47,714 nt of DNA from a virus, in the UHGV virus genome UHGV-1354603; one strand, 5' to 3'. Below the pieces are notes generated by a model. That model worked only from the letters and a program-made list of their open reading frames with translations, made no database searches and was not told the DNA's origin. Within the stretch, counting starts at the first letter, position 1. Every line of letters starts with the position of its first letter. A program made the translations under genes and the position numbers. This document shows, in pieces, positions 10,029 to 47,611 of this stretch.

Positions 10029-10328
10029 ATGGAGCCAACACTTTTGACTACAGAACAGGCATCCGAACTCATGGGAATGGGGATTACACGTTCACTCAAT
10101 TTGCTACGCGCCTATGGCGTGCAACCTGTCGATCTAGGACGTGGACGCGGAAACGGCTTGCGCTGGCATCGTCGGGCCGTTATGACGGTGATCGACACAT
10201 TACATGCTGAGGCTCAGGCAAAGGCAGGAGTTCCAAGGCGACGAAGACAGACCAAAACATCAGGGTGCGTCATCGGAAAATCCGCCAAGGAACTTTTAGC
10301 AGAGTTCAATATGGGGGCCGTCCAGTAG
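10029..10328 (+). CDS. xis: Putative excisionase / AlpA-like DNA-binding protein.
   Basis: HTH + GLRWHRRAV pattern; strong RBS; immediately upstream of int. Confidence 0.5.
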   Translation: MEPTLLTTEQASELMGMGITRSLNLLRAYGVQPVDLGRGRGNGLRWHRRAVMTVIDTLHAEAQAKAGVPRRRRQTKTSGCVIGKSAKELLAEFNMGAVQ

Positions 10329-10366
10329 CAGCTGGAGCGGCCTCCTTTGCTCAGGAGCTATTCAGT

Positions 10367-11461
10367 ATGGCTATCAGACAGAGGAAAGGCCGTAGAAAGC
10401 CGTGGGAAGTGTACTGGAACAACCCGTTCACCCTCAAGCGAGAATCACTTTACGTCGAAACGGAGGAGGAAGCAAAGAAGCAAGATGCCCTCAAGAAGTA
10501 TCAGCTTAAGTATGAAAGAGATTCATTCCGTAAGGACGAAGTTTCTGAGACGAATCAGGAACACACATTTGAGTCCGTATATTATTTATTTCTAAAAGAA
10601 AAACACTTTTCGGAAAAGGCATTAAACAGACATTTGGCAAATATGAAACCGGCTATGCCATTCATGTGTGATATACCCATTCATGAGATTGATAGTACAA
10701 AACTTAAAACCCTCGTCGAGTATTTTCTATCACGCAGAATCAAAACAGCAACTATCAGGCGTTATATAAGTCCGGTTATTTCCATAATTAGATGGGCATA
10801 TCAAAATGAACTCATCAGAGAAATGCCAAGAATCCCAACTTTGCCGCATGTTGAATATGAACATTTTGTACCACCGACACAACATGAAATTGCCTTGATA
10901 TTCGCACACGCCAATGAGCATGTGCGGCGCGTGATCATACTTGGTTCACAAATGGGTATTAGAGTAGGTCCATCAGAGCTTTTCAGTTTAAAATGGTCCG
11001 ATGTAGACATTGAAAATAGTGTGATTCATCTACATGCTGCAAAGAAAAATAGAAAAGAACCCATCCGTGATATCCCGATAAGAAAAACATTGATAGATGA
11101 ATTGCGGTCGTGGCGTGATGCTGATAAAGAATTAGGAGTCAATCAAGTTATCCATTTCAGAGGAAAGCCCATTAGAACCATACATGAGGGTTGGAAAGCC
11201 GCTCTCAGGCGTGCTGGAATATCAAGAAAGATACGTCCCTACGATCTAAGACATGCCTTTGCTACCGAAGCTATCGCCGCAGGTGCAGACATCGGGACGG
11301 TTGCAAAGCTCATGGGGCACGCCAGCCTTACAATGGTTTTGAAACACTATCAGCACGTCCTCAACTCTCAAAAAATTGCCGCAATTGAGGCTATCCCTGA
11401 ACCTAAATATGTGGCAGAAAATATGTGGCAACTTAAAGATGGATGTTCAGTTCGTCAATAA
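10367..11461 (+). CDS. int: Tyrosine integrase.
   Basis: R...HxxR...Y catalytic box: IRPYDLRHAFAT...GHASLTMVLKHYQHV. Confidence 0.9.
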   Translation: MAIRQRKGRRKPWEVYWNNPFTLKRESLYVETEEEAKKQDALKKYQLKYERDSFRKDEVSETNQEHTFESVYYLFLKEKHFSEKALNRHLANMKPAMPFMCDIPIHEIDSTKLKTLVEYFLSRRIKTATIRRYISPVISIIRWAYQNELIREMPRIPTLPHVEYEHFVPPTQHEIALIFAHANEHVRRVIILGSQMGIRVGPSELFSLKWSDVDIENSVIHLHAAKKNRKEPIRDIPIRKTLIDELRSWRDADKELGVNQVIHFRGKPIRTIHEGWKAALRRAGISRKIRPYDLRHAFATEAIAAGADIGTVAKLMGHASLTMVLKHYQHVLNSQKIAAIEAIPEPKYVAENMWQLKDGCSVRQ

Positions 11462-44054: not shown

Positions 44055-44801
44055 ATGGGTAAAACAGACTGGATCATTAAATTTTTTGAGTCCAAAATTG
44101 GGCACGGGAAGGAATTCGCCACACGAGTTGATATGGCGAGATTTTTAGGGTTGTCCCCAACGCAACAGACAAAATTGTTCAATTTTTTGAAAGGTTCAGA
44201 CACGCAATATAAGGCCGTCCTAGATTGGTTTGAACGACTTGGGGGCAAGTTCGAATCGGAGACTACACCTTCTAAAAACGTCTGCTTCATCGATGCGCGT
44301 GTGGCCCCCGCAGGCAATGCTCTCCCCCCTCCCCCGGATGAAGACTACCTCGCCGTTCCCCTTGTGGAAGAAGTTGGCGCGGGGCCCGGCATCATTCCAC
44401 AAAATGAACTCATCTCGTGGTTCCTCGTCTGGCGTCACCAGCGGGCCATTCAACACAAGCGTGACCTCATTGCCGTCATGCTGGGCAAACACTCAACGTC
44501 TATGGTTCCCACGCTCAAGCCACAAGACATTGTGCTTGTAGACCGACAAGATAAAGACGTGATGAACTTCAAAGGTAGGATCATGCTTGTCCTCGATCCT
44601 TTCGACGGTAGCGGGAAAATCAAGCGTGTAGCGGCAGAAAACCAGCCGAAAAAGCGCGACTATCGCATCACCTACTATTCGGATAACGCCGCCGAGAATC
44701 CCCCCGAGGTCTACAGCCTTATGGAAGACTTCGATGGCGACTGGAACAAGTCCATCGTCGGGCGCGTCGTATGGGCGTGGAGTGACGTGAGCTGCAAATG
44801 A
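44055..44801 (+). CDS. cI: CI-like repressor with a C-terminal S24 (LexA-like) peptidase domain.
   Basis: C-terminal MVPTLKPQDIVLVDRQ...GRIMLV...GKIKRV Ser/Lys dyad region; N-terminal DNA-binding part. Confidence 0.8.
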   Translation: MGKTDWIIKFFESKIGHGKEFATRVDMARFLGLSPTQQTKLFNFLKGSDTQYKAVLDWFERLGGKFESETTPSKNVCFIDARVAPAGNALPPPPDEDYLAVPLVEEVGAGPGIIPQNELISWFLVWRHQRAIQHKRDLIAVMLGKHSTSMVPTLKPQDIVLVDRQDKDVMNFKGRIMLVLDPFDGSGKIKRVAAENQPKKRDYRITYYSDNAAENPPEVYSLMEDFDGDWNKSIVGRVVWAWSDVSCK

Positions 44802-44833
44802 AAATCCCCGCCGGAGCGGGGAAGGAGAAAGAA

Positions 44834-45478
44834 ATGGAGCCACAAATTATTAGATTACAATTAGCACTTATTTTCCAAGATATCATTAGAAATCCTAATC
44901 TATTTATGGAAGAATTAACGAGTGAATTAGACTTATTCAAAGATTCTAATCCAAATTTTATTATGCATCCTAGCACAATCCCTCCAGTCGTTCCTATTGG
45001 GACACTTATGGGTACTAATAAAATGACAAGTCTATCTGCAACAGGAGAACGGATTGATTTTATTTGCTATAATGTTCCAAACATAGATAAAAATGTAAAA
45101 GATGTGTACGACAAAAATGTTCCAATCATTATTGACAAAGTATTGTCTAAAAAAAGTATAGGTCGTATCGGTTTTATATCGACAATATTTAGAGAAGATA
45201 AAAATCCAAATAATTATATAGAAAAAAATTATACTAATCATTCTATAATAAAAGATACGACAGAGATTTTTGTTAGATACAACAATCCATATAAATACAA
45301 AAATATACTTATAAACAAATTAACAAATATTGAAAGCCCATTTAAACCATTTCCAGATAACGATACAATAGGATGGTCAATAACAAAGGACATCAATACT
45401 TCTTTTAGAGATGATGGACTTTCAAAAAAATTTGTATTGGATCTGTATTCAAAAATAAAAGATTATTTATGTTCGTAG
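44834..45478 (+). CDS. AT-rich (about 29% GC) protein A of a cI-linked two-gene cassette; candidate defence sensor.
   Basis: AAGGAG RBS 7 nt upstream; GC hairpin at 44806-44821 between cI and the gene; no family recognised. Confidence 0.6.
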   Translation: MEPQIIRLQLALIFQDIIRNPNLFMEELTSELDLFKDSNPNFIMHPSTIPPVVPIGTLMGTNKMTSLSATGERIDFICYNVPNIDKNVKDVYDKNVPIIIDKVLSKKSIGRIGFISTIFREDKNPNNYIEKNYTNHSIIKDTTEIFVRYNNPYKYKNILINKLTNIESPFKPFPDNDTIGWSITKDINTSFRDDGLSKKFVLDLYSKIKDYLCS

Positions 45479-45485
45479 GTGAAAC

Positions 45486-46004
45486 ATGCTAAAAAGTAAT
45501 TTTCCGCAGTTTCCACCAGACCCTAATATTCTATTTGGAAAAGAGCAAAAATCTTCAACCAGTTCAGGTCAAGAACAAATATCATACCAAAAAACTTCTG
45601 CGTCTACTGCCTCAGTGGGTAATGAGTATCAATTTTTTGTTTATTTATCCAACTTGCATAATGCAATTATTCCAAGAATGAATGAGTATGAAAAAAATCA
45701 AGAAAATTTAGAATTAATTCTACACAAAGAAAAAGCGCTAGAAGAAGCAACACGAAGACTATTATCCATAAATATTATTTTAGGAATGATACTCCCAGCG
45801 GTTATTTTATTAATATTTTTCCTTTTTTGTTGGGTACATGCACCAGAAAATGTCGAATTATTCTTTGAAAAATATAAATGGATCTACTCTGGCTTTACAC
45901 TAGTTGGATTGATTGCTTTTATTAATCCAATATGGAACATTCACCAATACAGTAAAAGACTAGATTCTATTGAAAAACAATTAAAAATCAACGGTAACAA
46001 CTAG
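45486..46004 (+). CDS. AT-rich protein B: N-terminal Q/S-rich region, coiled coil, two C-terminal TM helices; candidate membrane effector.
   Basis: AGGTGA RBS; ILGMILPAVILLIFFLFCWV and FTLVGLIAFINPIW helices; terminator follows. Confidence 0.6.
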   Translation: MLKSNFPQFPPDPNILFGKEQKSSTSSGQEQISYQKTSASTASVGNEYQFFVYLSNLHNAIIPRMNEYEKNQENLELILHKEKALEEATRRLLSINIILGMILPAVILLIFFLFCWVHAPENVELFFEKYKWIYSGFTLVGLIAFINPIWNIHQYSKRLDSIEKQLKINGNN

Positions 46005-46099
46005 ATAAAAACACCAAAAAAGTCCCCAACAACAAAATAAAAATAAAAAACTTAAAAAATATTCAATAAATTTTCCCATAGGTCTTTTGGTACCTCCTC

Positions 46100-46124
46100 G
46101 CCCCTCCTCGTGAGGGGCTTTTTT
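46100..46124 (+). terminator. Rho-independent terminator.
   Basis: cccctc-ctcgt-gagggg + T6. Confidence 0.55.
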
Positions 46125-46198
46125 GTGTCCTGCCGGGCGTGACCGCCGAGCCTTCGTGGTGTCGGCGGTTATTGTTTTATCTTGTTATTATTGAATAC

Positions 46199-46239
46199 GC
46201 AAATTTACATTGACTCAATATTAGCGAATTTGCTATTAT
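46199..46239 (+). promoter_or_regulatory. pL-like promoter carrying a third copy of the CI operator.
   Basis: -35 TTGACT at 46210-46215, 18-nt spacer, -10 TATTAT at 46234-46239; O3 ATTAGCgaatttGCTATT (46220-46237); flanking GCAAATT/AATTTGC inverted repeat. Confidence 0.55.
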
Positions 46240-46581
46240 GGTTTCACAACGAACGGGGAAGGCGAACCCGGCGCGGCAACGGCCCGCCGAAAGCTGGAAC
46301 CGAACGGAGGAAGCCCCAACAAGTACGAGCACGGCAAGCGCAAGCCTTTGGGAGCGGGAAGCACGCGACGGCAGGAAATGGGGTGATGTGAAGACAGGCC
46401 GCGAGGGGACGGCGGGCCGAGCAAAGGCGCGGAAAGGCGACTGGGCGGCAACATGGGTTCCGAGACAAGCCCGCAACAAAACTCGAGACAACAATTTTCG
46501 TATCCCACCGCCAGCGCATGACGTTGGCGGGAAGGATGCGGAAGCATCCAGACTGAGCGTGGCTGGGCAGGGCGCGGCATT

Positions 46582-46611
46582 GCAAGGCAAGGCAAGGCAA
46601 GGCAAGGCGAG
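46582..46611. repeat. (GCAAG)5-GCGAG pentanucleotide microsatellite.
   Basis: Direct reading. Confidence 0.85.
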
Positions 46612-46615
46612 GCAG

Positions 46616-46749
46616 CGGTCGTATGAAAGGGACAGCGGATAGGCCGTTGTCCCGAACCGTGCGGGAACTCGCCCTGTACGGCAAGGGAAACCTTCCGGGA
46701 TTGGCCCGGTCGTATGAAAGGGACAGCGGATAGGCCGTTGTCCCGAACC
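46616..46749. repeat. Two identical 43-nt direct repeats (46616-46658 and 46707-46749), each containing gggaca...tgtccc hairpin potential.
   Basis: Direct reading: cggtcgtatgaaagggacagcggataggccgttgtcccgaacc appears twice. Confidence 0.85.
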
Positions 46750-46834
46750 ATGCGACGATGTGCCAGCATGGGGACGCGCGCCCGGCGGGGATTGGCTCCG
46801 CCGGGTGGTTTTTGACCTGAAAAGGATGTGACGA

Positions 46835-47611
46835 ATGAACAAATTGCAGATTTTCAAGAATGCCGAGTTTGGGGAAGTCCGGGTGGTCGAGCATGAAGGC
46901 CAGCCGTGGTTTGTGGCGAGCGACGTTGCGAAGGCGTTGGGATATGAAAAGCCCAACAACGCCGTCAATGAGCATTGCAAAAAAGTGAATAAATTCAGTT
47001 ACCCTAATTCGGGGCAGTTGCAGCCCTATAACATCATCCCCGAGTCCGACGTGTACCGCCTCGTCATGCGGTCGAACCTTCCAAAGGCCATAGAATTTCA
47101 GGATTGGATTTGCGAAGAGGTCATTCCTTCTCTTCGCAAGACTGGCGGCTACATGCTGACGAAAGCAGACGACACGCCGGAATCTATCATGGCCCGCGCC
47201 GTACTCGTCGCTCAAGAAACCATCGAGCGATTGAAGAGCCACACCGAAAAATTGGAATCCCGCGTTGAAGAGATGCGCCCGAAGGAGTTGTTCGCAGATT
47301 CCGTCTCGGCGTCCGAATCTTCCATCCTCGTTGGCCAGCTTGCGGCACTGCTCAAACAAAACGGCGTCAACATCGGCCAGAACCGCCTTTTCGAGCGTCT
47401 TCGCGATGACGGGTTCCTCATCAAATTCGGTTCACGTCGGAACTGTCCCACGCAGCGGGCAATGGACATGGGCCTTTTCGAGTTGAAGGAGCGCGTCATC
47501 AACAACCCCGACGGGACCGTCCGCATCACGCTCACGACCAAGGTCACGGGCAAGGGTCAGGTCTACTTCGTCAACAGGTACATTGGAGAGGCTCGCGAGG
47601 TCGCGGCATGA
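46835..47611 (+). CDS. Antirepressor (Bro-N + KilA-C-like), paralog 2.
   Basis: FGEVRVVEHEGQPWFVASDVAKALGYEKPNNAVNEHCKKVNKFSY; C-terminal region similar to the 25792..26622 product. Confidence 0.75.
   Translation: MNKLQIFKNAEFGEVRVVEHEGQPWFVASDVAKALGYEKPNNAVNEHCKKVNKFSYPNSGQLQPYNIIPESDVYRLVMRSNLPKAIEFQDWICEEVIPSLRKTGGYMLTKADDTPESIMARAVLVAQETIERLKSHTEKLESRVEEMRPKELFADSVSASESSILVGQLAALLKQNGVNIGQNRLFERLRDDGFLIKFGSRRNCPTQRAMDMGLFELKERVINNPDGTVRITLTTKVTGKGQVYFVNRYIGEAREVAA

Follow-up and report, generated by a model that had tools for sequence, protein, structure and literature searches.

A vrRNA-like guide tract in the modular early leader of a Bilophila wadsworthia phage

The untranslated start of the repressor-controlled early operon in a temperate phage of the human-gut bacterium Bilophila wadsworthia contains an element that we consider, with a probability of about 0.8, to be a vrRNA-type guide from a VIPR locus, situated within a conserved non-coding early leader. 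VIPR (Viral Interference Programmable Repeat) was described only in 2026, in phages of E. coli and Pseudomonas, namely SUSP1 of Escherichia and a prophage of Pseudomonas fulva; its guide, the vrRNA, is a run of 9-16 YNNGG repeats in which GGY is conserved and NN hypervariable, an invariant structured tail stands at its 3' end, and the NN bases read DNA with a skip of one nucleotide (bioRxiv 10.64898/2026.04.26.720920; 10.64898/2026.04.26.720927). The window (the whole analysed stretch of 47,714 nt, UHGV virus genome UHGV-1354603; all features below are on its + strand) contains 12 such units, which is inside this range, with conserved GGY, variable NN and an invariant structured tail, and the tract and tail together span 106 nt (46558-46663), against approximately 100 nt expected of a processed vrRNA. 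The adjacent vipr gene, which a VIPR system should also have, is lacking in the window, as in at least five other variants, and present in four related loci (L079, L080, L089 and L091). The element is, in our reading, an orphan or remnant VIPR guide in a modular early leader, and not a regulator specific to the antirepressor gene ant. It may still be active as a guide in this phage, with Vipr supplied in trans, but we regard this as less likely than not.

These observations place a divergent VIPR clade in phages of B. wadsworthia, a human-gut pathobiont, and suggest that VIPR loci lose their protein gene through recombination between their own guide tracts, leaving orphan guides that are at least as common in gut metagenomes as intact loci. 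An orphan guide of this kind offers a natural test case for guides working in trans between competing phages. In genome annotation, a purine-rich GGCNN microsatellite with a hairpin behind it should be labelled a vrRNA.

The leader, comprising 595 nt between the repressor-type promoter (46210-46239) and the antirepressor start (46835), is a conserved, structured non-coding RNA. The original prediction had described it as a G+A-rich strand without a credible ORF, and both statements were confirmed: purines make up 62.2% of its + strand versus 49.9% in the whole window, essentially no other 595-nt stretch of the window is richer in them, and no conserved ORF runs across it. That the RNA is structured, as had also been proposed, and conserved follows from the folding energy (MFE z-score of -4.4 against dinucleotide shuffles), from the homologous leaders of about 60 related B. 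wadsworthia phage and prophage loci, and from the covariation described below. The only long + strand ORF in the leader (46238-46642, 134 aa) does exist, and its translation into a protein is hardly credible: it is of low complexity, has no ribosome-binding site and no Pfam match, its ATG lies inside the -10 box and is missing in relatives with other promoter types, and it is not conserved, being shortened to 64 aa in L002; the compensatory base changes speak for selection acting on the RNA. No known RNA family had been recognized by eye in the original prediction, and covariance models agree, since Rfam 15 (including ROOL, GOLLD, C4, riboswitches and ribozymes) gave no matches at the gathering threshold in the window and 10 related loci, and a permissive Rfam scan of 45950-47000 returned only noise (E > 0.7). 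No tRNA or tmRNA was detected in the window, nor did megablast and blastn find a DNA match to it in the GenBank phage collection.

The pentamer tract and its hairpin tail

All sequence features listed in the original prediction are present, some of them being longer than stated there. The (GCAAG)5 tract at 46582-46611 (in Tandem Repeats Finder output, period 5 and 6.6 copies of GCAAG at 46582-46614) belongs to a longer 5-nt periodicity extending over 46558-46617, which was delimited by periodicity analysis, pattern scans and comparison with relatives. It consists of 12 YNNGG pentamers, CGTGG CTGGG CAGGG CGCGG CATTG, five times CAAGG, CGAGG and CAGCG, giving the NN series GT TG AG GC AT AA AA AA AA AA GA AG. 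Ten of the 12 units are perfect; the imperfect ones, CATTG and the junction unit CAGCG, are seen also in tracts linked to vipr. A pattern of five GGCNN units has 8 overlapping matches in the window, all of them in this tract, against 0.02 expected from shuffles. In 890 kb of DNA scanned on both strands, tracts with at least six perfect YNNGG units are confined to this leader or to intergenic DNA beside vipr genes, and all of them lie on the transcribed strand.

Over 146 units from 12 related tracts, C and the second G are conserved in 100% and the first G in 90% of the units, and the two N positions carry 0.65 and 0.11 bit, statistics that hold partly by construction, as the tract finder demanded Y and GG. 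Independently of the finder, tracts placed between identical flanks differ among relatives in their NN bases and in unit number. The run of five CAAGG units, which accounts for AA in 5 of the 12 NN positions, looks like the product of slippage and would carry little information; the number of these units ranges from 2 to 5 among relatives.

The 3' end of the tract adjoins the first of two direct repeats. The original prediction of two perfect 43-nt copies 91 nt apart, each with a GGGACA...TGTCCC hairpin (46629-46653 and 46720-46744), can be extended to copies of 48 nt with one mismatch (46616-46663 and 46707-46754) at the same spacing. Copy 1, defined by repeat search, relatives and covariation, is the tail of the tract and contains a closing helix GUAUG/CGUGC, an A-rich internal loop, the stem GGGACA(GCGG)/(CCGU)UGUCCC and then GAAC. 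The exact tail of the window, with its 29-nt hairpin core, follows at least nine different tracts in gut metagenomes, some of them beside vipr. In the covariation analysis 94.6% of the cells were paired and compensatory changes were found in 9 of 15 pairs; none of 500 shuffles scored as high, and the slid controls had 22-48% paired. We modelled the tail as a hairpin with a closing helix, in which the CAUGC segment has an upstream and a downstream stretch as alternative pairing partners.

Copy 2, which has no pentamer tract before it, belongs together with two further hairpins at 46657-46709 (CCGUGC...GUACGG at 46657-46681 and, at 46695-46709, a short version of the GGGAUUGGCC-loop hairpin) to an extra 91-nt unit. 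The same unit stands behind other tail-like hairpins in seven related loci (L027, L078, L082 and L085-L088), and its CCGUGC...GUACGG hairpin stays paired although A:U pairs of one unit are replaced by G:C in the other. The second 43-nt copy probably arrived as part of a separate three-hairpin unit that recombined in behind the tail. It is followed by a hairpin CCAUGC...GCAUGG (46748-46771), whose structure is kept in relatives while its loops differ. In the window neither a second 5' domain nor any tail besides the two repeat copies was found; among relatives, tail-like hairpins without any tract are common.

Among the three roles offered by the original prediction (a put-like antitermination RNA in cis, a processed small RNA and a riboregulator of the antirepressor), the processed small RNA came closest, with the addition that the tract and the repeated hairpin have the anatomy of a vrRNA. 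By analogy with the published VIPR model, GGC would be the scaffold that binds protein, the NN dinucleotides would provide specificity and the 3' tail hairpin would serve as a cap. On induction or infection the early promoter would transcribe the leader, and, if the cell also contained a related phage or prophage that supplies Vipr, the tract would become covered by about 12 protomers; in the published model, SUSP1 intermediates resolve 3'-to-5', beginning near the 3' cap. The complex would then bind double-stranded DNA matching the NN series, one base being skipped in each unit, and keep that site transcriptionally silent. In cells lacking Vipr the tract would be inert leader RNA.

Vipr in related phages and its absence from the window

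In two relatives (L014 and L016) the same leader contains a 196-aa ORF flanked by YNNGG tracts. Its product, Vipr-A, matches the PDB entry 36pp, "SUSP1 Vipr protein" (E = 1.7e-9), and the match takes in the GxGDxRP loop. In the four loci named above (L079, L080, L089 and L091), the middle segment of the window's leader is followed by a tract, a ribosome-binding site, a 207-aa ORF, at least one more tract and the tail of the window. The 207-aa protein, Vipr-B, matches the Vipr profile with E of about 1e-6 and Vipr of L014 with E = 6e-8, while direct sequence search of the PDB with it gave only noise. Its AlphaFold model (pLDDT 80.6), used for a fold search of the PDB, had as top matches solely RAMP proteins of CRISPR systems (Cas7, Csm3, type VII), and we identify the protein, named in NCBI a hypothetical protein of Bilophila wadsworthia, as Vipr with a predicted Cas7/Csm3-like RAMP fold.

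Neither protein has a counterpart in the window: tblastn with Vipr-A gave no match at E<=10, the best hit of Vipr-B had E of 2.9, and the Vipr HMM reached at best E of 0.32 among the 666 ORFs of the window. The absence of vipr applies to the window only, as its ends show no terminal overlap and it may be an incomplete genome.

Several earlier ideas on the tract were dropped because its homologues flank a RAMP protein and fit the published definition of vrRNA. They include recognition by a TRAP-like ring protein, a two-tetrad G-quadruplex, ToxI-like antitoxin repeats and an immunity RNA of the P1 c4 or P4 CI type, for the last of which Rfam C4 had no match either. A CRISPR array or mini-array, which calls for at least three direct repeats of 23-50 nt separated by unique spacers of similar length and for cas genes or matching host repeats, was rejected as well: the repeat here has only two copies, what separates them is a conserved hairpin unit shared with relatives and not a unique spacer, and no cas genes were seen.

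The window tract starts like the upstream tracts of intact loci and finishes like their downstream tracts, and the same is true of the other orphan tracts; therefore it is most likely that vipr was removed by recombination between the two flanking tracts, which left one fused tract and the tail. Units 1-9 in L001 are the same as the upstream tract of L079 except for one NN change, the part of L089 at 10111-10903 has no counterpart in the window, and L064 is an analogous deletion form of the L014 locus. Since the upstream tract of an intact locus has no hairpin tail, the 5' half of the fused tract may never have been a working guide.

The tract and tails might instead be decaying leftovers of a VIPR locus, the region working only as a long 5' UTR, and we give this explanation considerable weight, placing it somewhat below even odds. 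The missing vipr, the failure of the target searches described below, the slippage-like (CAAGG)5 and the frequent tail-like hairpins without a tract all fit it. Against it, perfect GGC periodicity and an identical tail are retained in at least five distinct tract variants that lack vipr and come from different samples; these variants are as frequent as intact loci. The argument from the variants is weak, because all the relatives are very close and an intact tract with its tail may reflect a recent deletion rather than selection.

Targets were sought with the NN series read with a 1-nt skip; in the published nhmmer procedure a target matches at least 80% of the NN bases. In 760 kb of related phage DNA the best match of the window guide was 17 of 24 NN bases, the same as in controls with shuffled unit order; in the window itself no self-target was found (best match 16 of 24), and in related loci nothing reached 75% or above. 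When all 22 guides were compared with 890 kb, the result was no better than in shuffled-order controls. In IMG/VR, scanned for exact 20-base xNN matches, there were 7 to the window guide in 3 unrelated sequence families, about the chance level, as the flanking units mismatch, and no matches to the guide of a vipr-carrying locus. One of the IMG/VR matches lies in frame inside a MazG-like gene; its flanking units mismatch and the contigs are unrelated.

A guide-only RNA could also be kept in order to use the Vipr of a competitor prophage against that competitor, or as a sponge for Vipr. The VIPR paper reports that satellites carry vrRNAs themselves and that some vrRNAs are directed against other VIPR systems; as Vipr-B is present in genomes of B. 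wadsworthia, it can be encountered in trans; the early promoter would make the RNA at the moment of conflict; and extra tail-only units are at hand. However, matches to vipr-carrying relatives or to the other searched phage DNA never exceed the controls, and we consider such piracy or decoy activity improbable, slightly more so than the broader proposal given at the end of the next section.

The leader around the guide

Upstream of the leader, a terminator scan found two tandem terminator-like hairpins at 46100-46179, in the same place in all relatives: the first is GCCCCTCCTCGTGAGGGGC followed by a T-run and the second ACCGCCGA...TCGGCGGT followed by a T-rich tail. Their putative role is to insulate the leader promoter from transcription coming from upstream. 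Of the sigma-70-like sequences in this area, the early promoter at 46210-46239 (TTGACT-N18-TATTAT, TG-extended) matches best (10/12), and operator-like half-sites GCAAATT / AATTTGC overlap it. From comparison of the loci we infer that the promoter/operator sequence switches together with the type of N-terminus in the cI-like repressor encoded upstream.

The transcript opens with a conserved structured 5' domain (46242-46396), which was delimited by nhmmer and an RNAalifold model; nhmmer finds it once in the window and once in every one of 62 related loci. In its helix P1 the 5' end (UUCAC.ACG..CGG) pairs with CCG..CGGAGGAA; an internal hairpin comes next, and then a variable insert closed by helix P4, which exists in at least three sequence versions with pairing kept in all of them (GCCCC/GGGGU, GCCGGUUUG/UUAGACUGGU and GCCAGCC/GGCUGGU). 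The domain holds the start of the transcript whatever comes next, be it RNA modules, tRNAs or an ORF. A scan of a genome collection with the 5' motif gave one true match, which lies in a B. wadsworthia ATCC 49260 prophage; five further matches are apparently due to chance, their flanks being unlike the leader.

The middle segment (46397-46557), defined by alignment with L001 and by the L080 and L089 sequences, ends with a GGAUGC-GGAA-GCAUCC hairpin and AGACUGAG. From approximately 46384 to 46557 the leader is identical in vipr-carrying relatives, where this stretch lies directly 5' of their first pentamer tract.

At the other end, a terminator-like hairpin, hp3 (CCCGGCGGGGAUUGGCUCCGCCGGG, 46779-46817), with 12 pairs, 10 of them G-C, is followed by GUUUUUG and ends 18 nt before the start codon of ant (46835-47611), an antirepressor-type gene with Bro-N and KilAC domains (Pfam E of 1e-25 and 5e-31) and the first gene 3' of the leader in this phage. 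Such a hairpin at the end of the leader would decrease read-through into ant. It is present in most relatives, often with a second terminator after it.

This position just before ant would suit a riboregulator of the antirepressor, the repeats controlling translation of ant or acting as an immunity RNA like c4 or sar. The comparison of loci contradicts that reading, as the same leader and tail precede quite different DNA: they occur without an ant gene in L001, L080 and L089, an AT-rich inserted gene cassette lies downstream of the leader in L021, and most other relatives have a second terminator 3' of the leader and then early recombination genes. Besides, the repeats are direct and not complementary to the ribosome-binding region of ant, and neither C4 nor any other Rfam family was matched. 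We regard regulation of ant by this RNA as very unlikely.

The third role from the original prediction, a put-like leader that acts in cis, could concern the 5' domain, which would modify RNA polymerase for antitermination or protect the 5' end; purine richness, as part of the same explanation, would help a long untranslated RNA to avoid Rho loading. The domain is always at the transcript start regardless of what follows and is structured, with covariation; the stretch from the promoter to the early genes contains terminator-like hairpins and leaves no space for another promoter; and the purine content is extreme. Yet there is a single copy per genome, unlike putL and putR, similarity to known antiterminator RNAs is absent and the mechanism is wholly conjectural. 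Moreover, it could apply to the 5' domain alone and leaves the pentamer tract and the 43-nt repeats unexplained. On this evidence we judge it rather unlikely, although more probable than the piracy discussed above.

In this phage family the leader is a site where RNA and small-gene modules are carried and exchanged: the 5' domain, supported by covariation and without a known family, heads a region of swapped tRNAs, guide RNAs and small genes. A bolder proposal, in two separate parts, is that the 155-nt 5' domain would represent a novel kind of leader RNA which, acting in cis, takes transcription past the terminators of the cargo region, and that vipr-less phages would keep guide-only vrRNAs and tail-only units as weapons which reprogram or titrate the Vipr of competitors. 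We consider this proposal as a whole improbable.

Comparison with known systems

The put RNA of phage HK022 consists of two stem-loops (about 70 nt), is present at two sites, downstream of both early promoters, and acts on RNA polymerase in cis. The leader described here resembles HK022 put and lambda nut in placing a structured RNA right after a repressor-controlled early promoter, with terminators to be read through beyond it. It differs from put in that the 5' domain is about 155 nt long, has another architecture, exists in one copy and shows no similarity in sequence or structure.

The immunity RNAs c4 of P1 and CI of P4 are processed from leaders upstream of ant or early genes, and the likeness to them is that a small RNA is embedded in a leader 5' of an antirepressor. 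The differences are that there is no Rfam C4 match, that the repeats have no complementarity to downstream sites and that the leader occurs also without ant.

Phage-borne mini-CRISPR arrays and solitary repeat units (RNA anti-CRISPRs) are cases in which an element carries only the RNA part and uses or disturbs the proteins of another genome. The window likewise has only the RNA part of an RNA-guided system; however, that system is built of pentamer-scaffold guides and Vipr and not of CRISPR repeats and Cas, and the 43-nt repeats are tails rather than repeat-spacer units.

The closest likeness is to the VIPR vrRNAs. The window tract has 12 units, and the SUSP1 vrRNA seen by cryo-EM carries 12 Vipr subunits; the RNA is encoded by a phage, with GGY conserved and NN hypervariable among close relatives, and has an invariant structured 3' tail of approximately 45 nt; and the tracts of the relatives flank a small gene for a RAMP-fold protein, one being upstream and one or two downstream of it. 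In contrast to the known systems, this phage has no vipr gene in the window and its target was not found, the Bilophila Vipr-B is so divergent that the SUSP1 protein was reached only via an intermediate, and the Bilophila locus lies inside the leader of a repressor-controlled early operon, with no accessory vap gene identified. The tail is modelled here as a hairpin with a closing helix; the SUSP1 tail forms a pseudoknot, and the published P. fulva complexes have no 3'-pseudoknot marker of the SUSP1 kind (bioRxiv 10.64898/2026.04.26.720927). The vrRNAs of SUSP1 satellites (same preprint) are similar to the present element in being guide RNAs on an element other than the SUSP1 VIPR locus, and we assume, beyond what the preprint states, that these satellites have no Vipr of their own and rely on Vipr made elsewhere. 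In our case, unlike that of the satellites, the carrier is a full temperate phage, and its guide apparently arose by deletion of vipr from a once-complete locus.

A non-coding early leader and its relatives

The leader (46240-46834) is bounded by a strong sigma-70-type promoter (TTGACT-18-TATTAT, TG extension; 46210-46239, + strand) and by ant, an antirepressor-type gene with Bro-N and KilAC domains (46835-47611, +). Two terminator-like hairpins (46100-46179, +) lie upstream of the promoter, and at its 3' end the leader has a 12-bp G+C-rich hairpin followed by GUUUUUG (hp3; 46779-46817, +), which, to judge from its sequence, probably ends most leader transcripts and limits ant expression. The observation behind the original prediction is real: both the pentamer run and the 43-nt direct repeats are present. 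TRF reports (GCAAG)6.6 at 46582-46614, but the period-5 run is longer than was stated, spanning 12 units (46558-46617) with GGC fixed and two bases variable per unit, and a repeat finder extends the direct repeat to 48 nt (46616-46663 and 46707-46754; one mismatch, 91-nt spacing). The strand, described as purine-rich, has 62% purine in 46240-46834, essentially the highest of any 595 nt in the window. The proposal of a structured RNA is supported by a fold that beats shuffles (z = -4.4) and by the covariation of the tail hairpin described below. The region is not coding, as had been supposed, the 134-aa ORF in it having no family match and not being kept among relatives. The suggested Rfam scan of the leader matched no known family, and GenBank phages contained no DNA resembling it.

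Searches with the cI-like repressor, the 5' motif and the repeat hairpin retrieved about 60 related loci in total. One lies in a prophage carried by Bilophila wadsworthia ATCC 49260, so the host is Bilophila. All share the order of two terminators, promoter and long ORF-poor leader. Their promoter/operator sequence co-varies with the type of N terminus that the upstream repressor has, suggesting an early promoter under repressor control. The DNA 3' of the leader differs: some relatives have ant there, some an inserted AT-rich cassette, and in others a second terminator precedes genes for DUF6948, exonuclease and RecT. The leader is thus not antirepressor-specific, which argues against the proposed riboregulator of the antirepressor; a put-like element was rejected as the identity of the repeats.

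Two further features of these early regions deserve mention. In the relatives' early operon the DUF6948 gene is followed by a long GGCTCC/GGCTAC hexanucleotide repeat (L002, 8740-8980; L029, about 1065-1225 from the transcript start, locus minus strand), which would read as Gly-Ser/Gly-Tyr repeats in one frame and as Arg-Leu or Arg-Ser repeats in other frames. In the window a 28% G+C island (44798-46004) separates the cI-like repressor gene from the leader cassette and holds two ORFs (226 and 172 aa; no Pfam or PHROG match), the second being hydrophobic in its C-terminal half. The equivalent slot holds unrelated cargo in relatives, e.g., a nucleoside deoxyribosyltransferase-like gene in L001, and looks like an insertion slot for accessory or defence genes.

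A probable orphan VIPR guide

The link to VIPR came from two related loci, L014 and L016, in which a 196-aa ORF (Vipr-A) lies inside the leader with GGCNN tracts on both sides and matches PDB 36pp, 'SUSP1 Vipr protein' (E 1.7e-9), the match covering the glycine-rich loop at the C terminus too. Vipr is an ancestral RAMP protein of roughly 20 kDa; its guide, the vrRNA, consists of 9-16 YNNGG repeats (GGY conserved, NN hypervariable) and is capped at its 3' end by an invariant structured tail. Each repeat of the RNA is coated by one protomer; double-stranded DNA is recognised through the NN bases, one base being skipped in every unit; and binding silences transcription in competing phages, prophages or satellites (bioRxiv 10.64898/2026.04.26.720920, 10.64898/2026.04.26.720927).

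The window's own tract and tail were examined in this light. A metagenome scan with the window hairpin found the identical tail behind at least nine different pentamer tracts. In L079, L080, L089 and L091 the middle segment is the same as in the window up to ...GGATGCGGAAGCATCCAGACTGAG; behind it lie a tract and a 207-aa ORF preceded by an RBS, then one or two more tracts, and finally the tail and terminal hairpins that the window has. The 207-aa protein (Vipr-B), a Bilophila wadsworthia "hypothetical protein" with more than 2,400 relatives, matches the Vipr profile (E about 1e-6) and the L014 Vipr (E 6e-8), and the top PDB fold matches of its model (pLDDT 80.6) are all CRISPR RAMPs (Cas7, Csm3, type VII, Cas7-11). 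In the 146 pentamer units compared, the C is conserved at 100% and the two G positions at 90% and 100%, both N positions being nearly uninformative. Over 15 tail variants 94.6% of cells are paired, with compensatory changes in 9 of the 15 pairs; no shuffle scored as high, and slid controls gave 22-48%. On this evidence the tract and the first 43-nt repeat, together 106 nt, have the defining vrRNA anatomy, and the element is best classed as an orphan VIPR guide, carried by a Bilophila phage within a conserved modular early leader.

No Vipr gene was found in the window, which lacks a terminal overlap and is therefore possibly an incomplete genome, by tblastn with both Vipr types or by an HMM search over 666 ORFs. 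Other vipr-less loci are L001/L017/L084, L081, L083, L090 and L036 (truncated by a contig end). In these and in the window, the single tract resembles at its start the upstream tract of intact loci, the first nine units of L001 equalling those of the L079 upstream tract bar one NN change, and at its end their last downstream tract (...CAAGG CAAGG CGAGG CAGCGG plus tail); the counterpart of L089 10111-10903 is absent in the window, and L064 is an analogous derivative of an L014-type locus. The simplest reading of these sequences is that vipr would have been deleted by recombination between the flanking tracts and that slippage varies the number of CAAGG units (2-5). As to ant, whose Bro-N/KilAC product is a DNA-binding protein, it lies 3' of the leader in some vipr-carrying and some vipr-less loci (L079 at a contig end, L027, L082, L087, L090) and is absent in others (L001, L080, L089).

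The 5' domain and other RNA modules

The first 155-180 nt of the leader (about 155 nt in the window, 46242-46396, +) form a covarying domain, of which each of 62 related loci has one copy, always at the start of the transcript. RNAalifold predicts pairing of the extreme 5' end with the conserved segment CCG..CGGAGGAA, plus an internal hairpin; the helix that closes a variable insert exists in at least three sequence versions, and pairing is kept in all of them. The domain has no Rfam family and was not found in the Desulfovibrio-type VIPR loci L073-L077; it is therefore not part of VIPR and, on comparative sequence grounds, is an additional, independent structured RNA. Its most plausible roles would be protection of the 5' end or helping polymerase pass terminators of the untranslated region; the purine bias would disfavour Rho loading.

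What lies behind this domain varies among relatives: it may be hairpin modules, tRNA-Gln, tRNA-Ser, an odd tRNA-like gene or a CII-like ORF, or an ORF may follow directly; the tRNA and tRNA-like genes make the leader a cargo bay for structured RNAs. The tRNA-Gln(UUG), tRNA-Ser(UGA) and tRNA-like genes occur in L032, L042, L046, L056 and L059 (also L006 8039-8127 and L013 5794-5882). In the tRNA-like gene, which ARAGORN labels 'tRNA-???', the variable arm is long and the anticodon loop abnormal.

The second 43-nt copy belongs to a 91-nt three-hairpin unit. In the window the first of these hairpins has exactly the sequence of the vrRNA tail; in L027, L078, L082 and L085-L088 the unit also follows other tail-like hairpins. 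The hairpin loop GGGGAUUGGC(Y) (46782-46806, and most relatives; short second copy at 46695-46709) is conserved in sequence while its stem varies by wobble changes; since it is kept even where a separate terminator follows, it may do more than terminate, for example serve as a binding site. After each tail hairpin (46619-46681, 46710-46771) C(A/G)UGC can pair either upstream with G(C/U)AUG or downstream with G(C/U)A(U/C)GG. These mutually exclusive helices, conserved in relatives (in L015 the upstream one is a perfect 10 bp), could form a switch or pseudoknot-like arrangement.

Possible function and comparison with published VIPR

By the published mechanism, the window RNA would work only with Vipr, which a co-resident relative would need to supply; Bilophila genomes do include prophages with Vipr-B. 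In 760-890 kb of DNA from related phages no match of the guide exceeded the shuffled controls, and it had no self-target within the window; an exact IMG/VR scan gave chance-level matches for it and none for a guide from an intact locus. An exact 20-base match under the 1-nt skip rule (L068 1948-1976; also L066, L069, L070, L071) lies in a MazG-like gene of unrelated phages of 44-47% G+C, in frame, the skipped base falling on the wobble position; it was rejected as a target, as flanking units mismatch and the number of matches is about chance. A remnant and a trans-active or decoy guide appear comparably likely.

A second tract, 3' of the Vipr-A gene (L014 8100-8230, L016 8980-9110), has a relaxed periodicity, with G-Y at 5-nt spacing and the preceding G not conserved, and runs straight into hp3; it resembles the 'related consensus' repeats of the VIPR preprint. 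VIPR loci carry a vipr gene, whereas the window has a vrRNA-type guide without a detectable one. What it shares with them is the pentamer tract with its structured 3' tail, 106 nt in all, and it adds a new example, from a Bilophila phage, to a kind of element known only since 2026.
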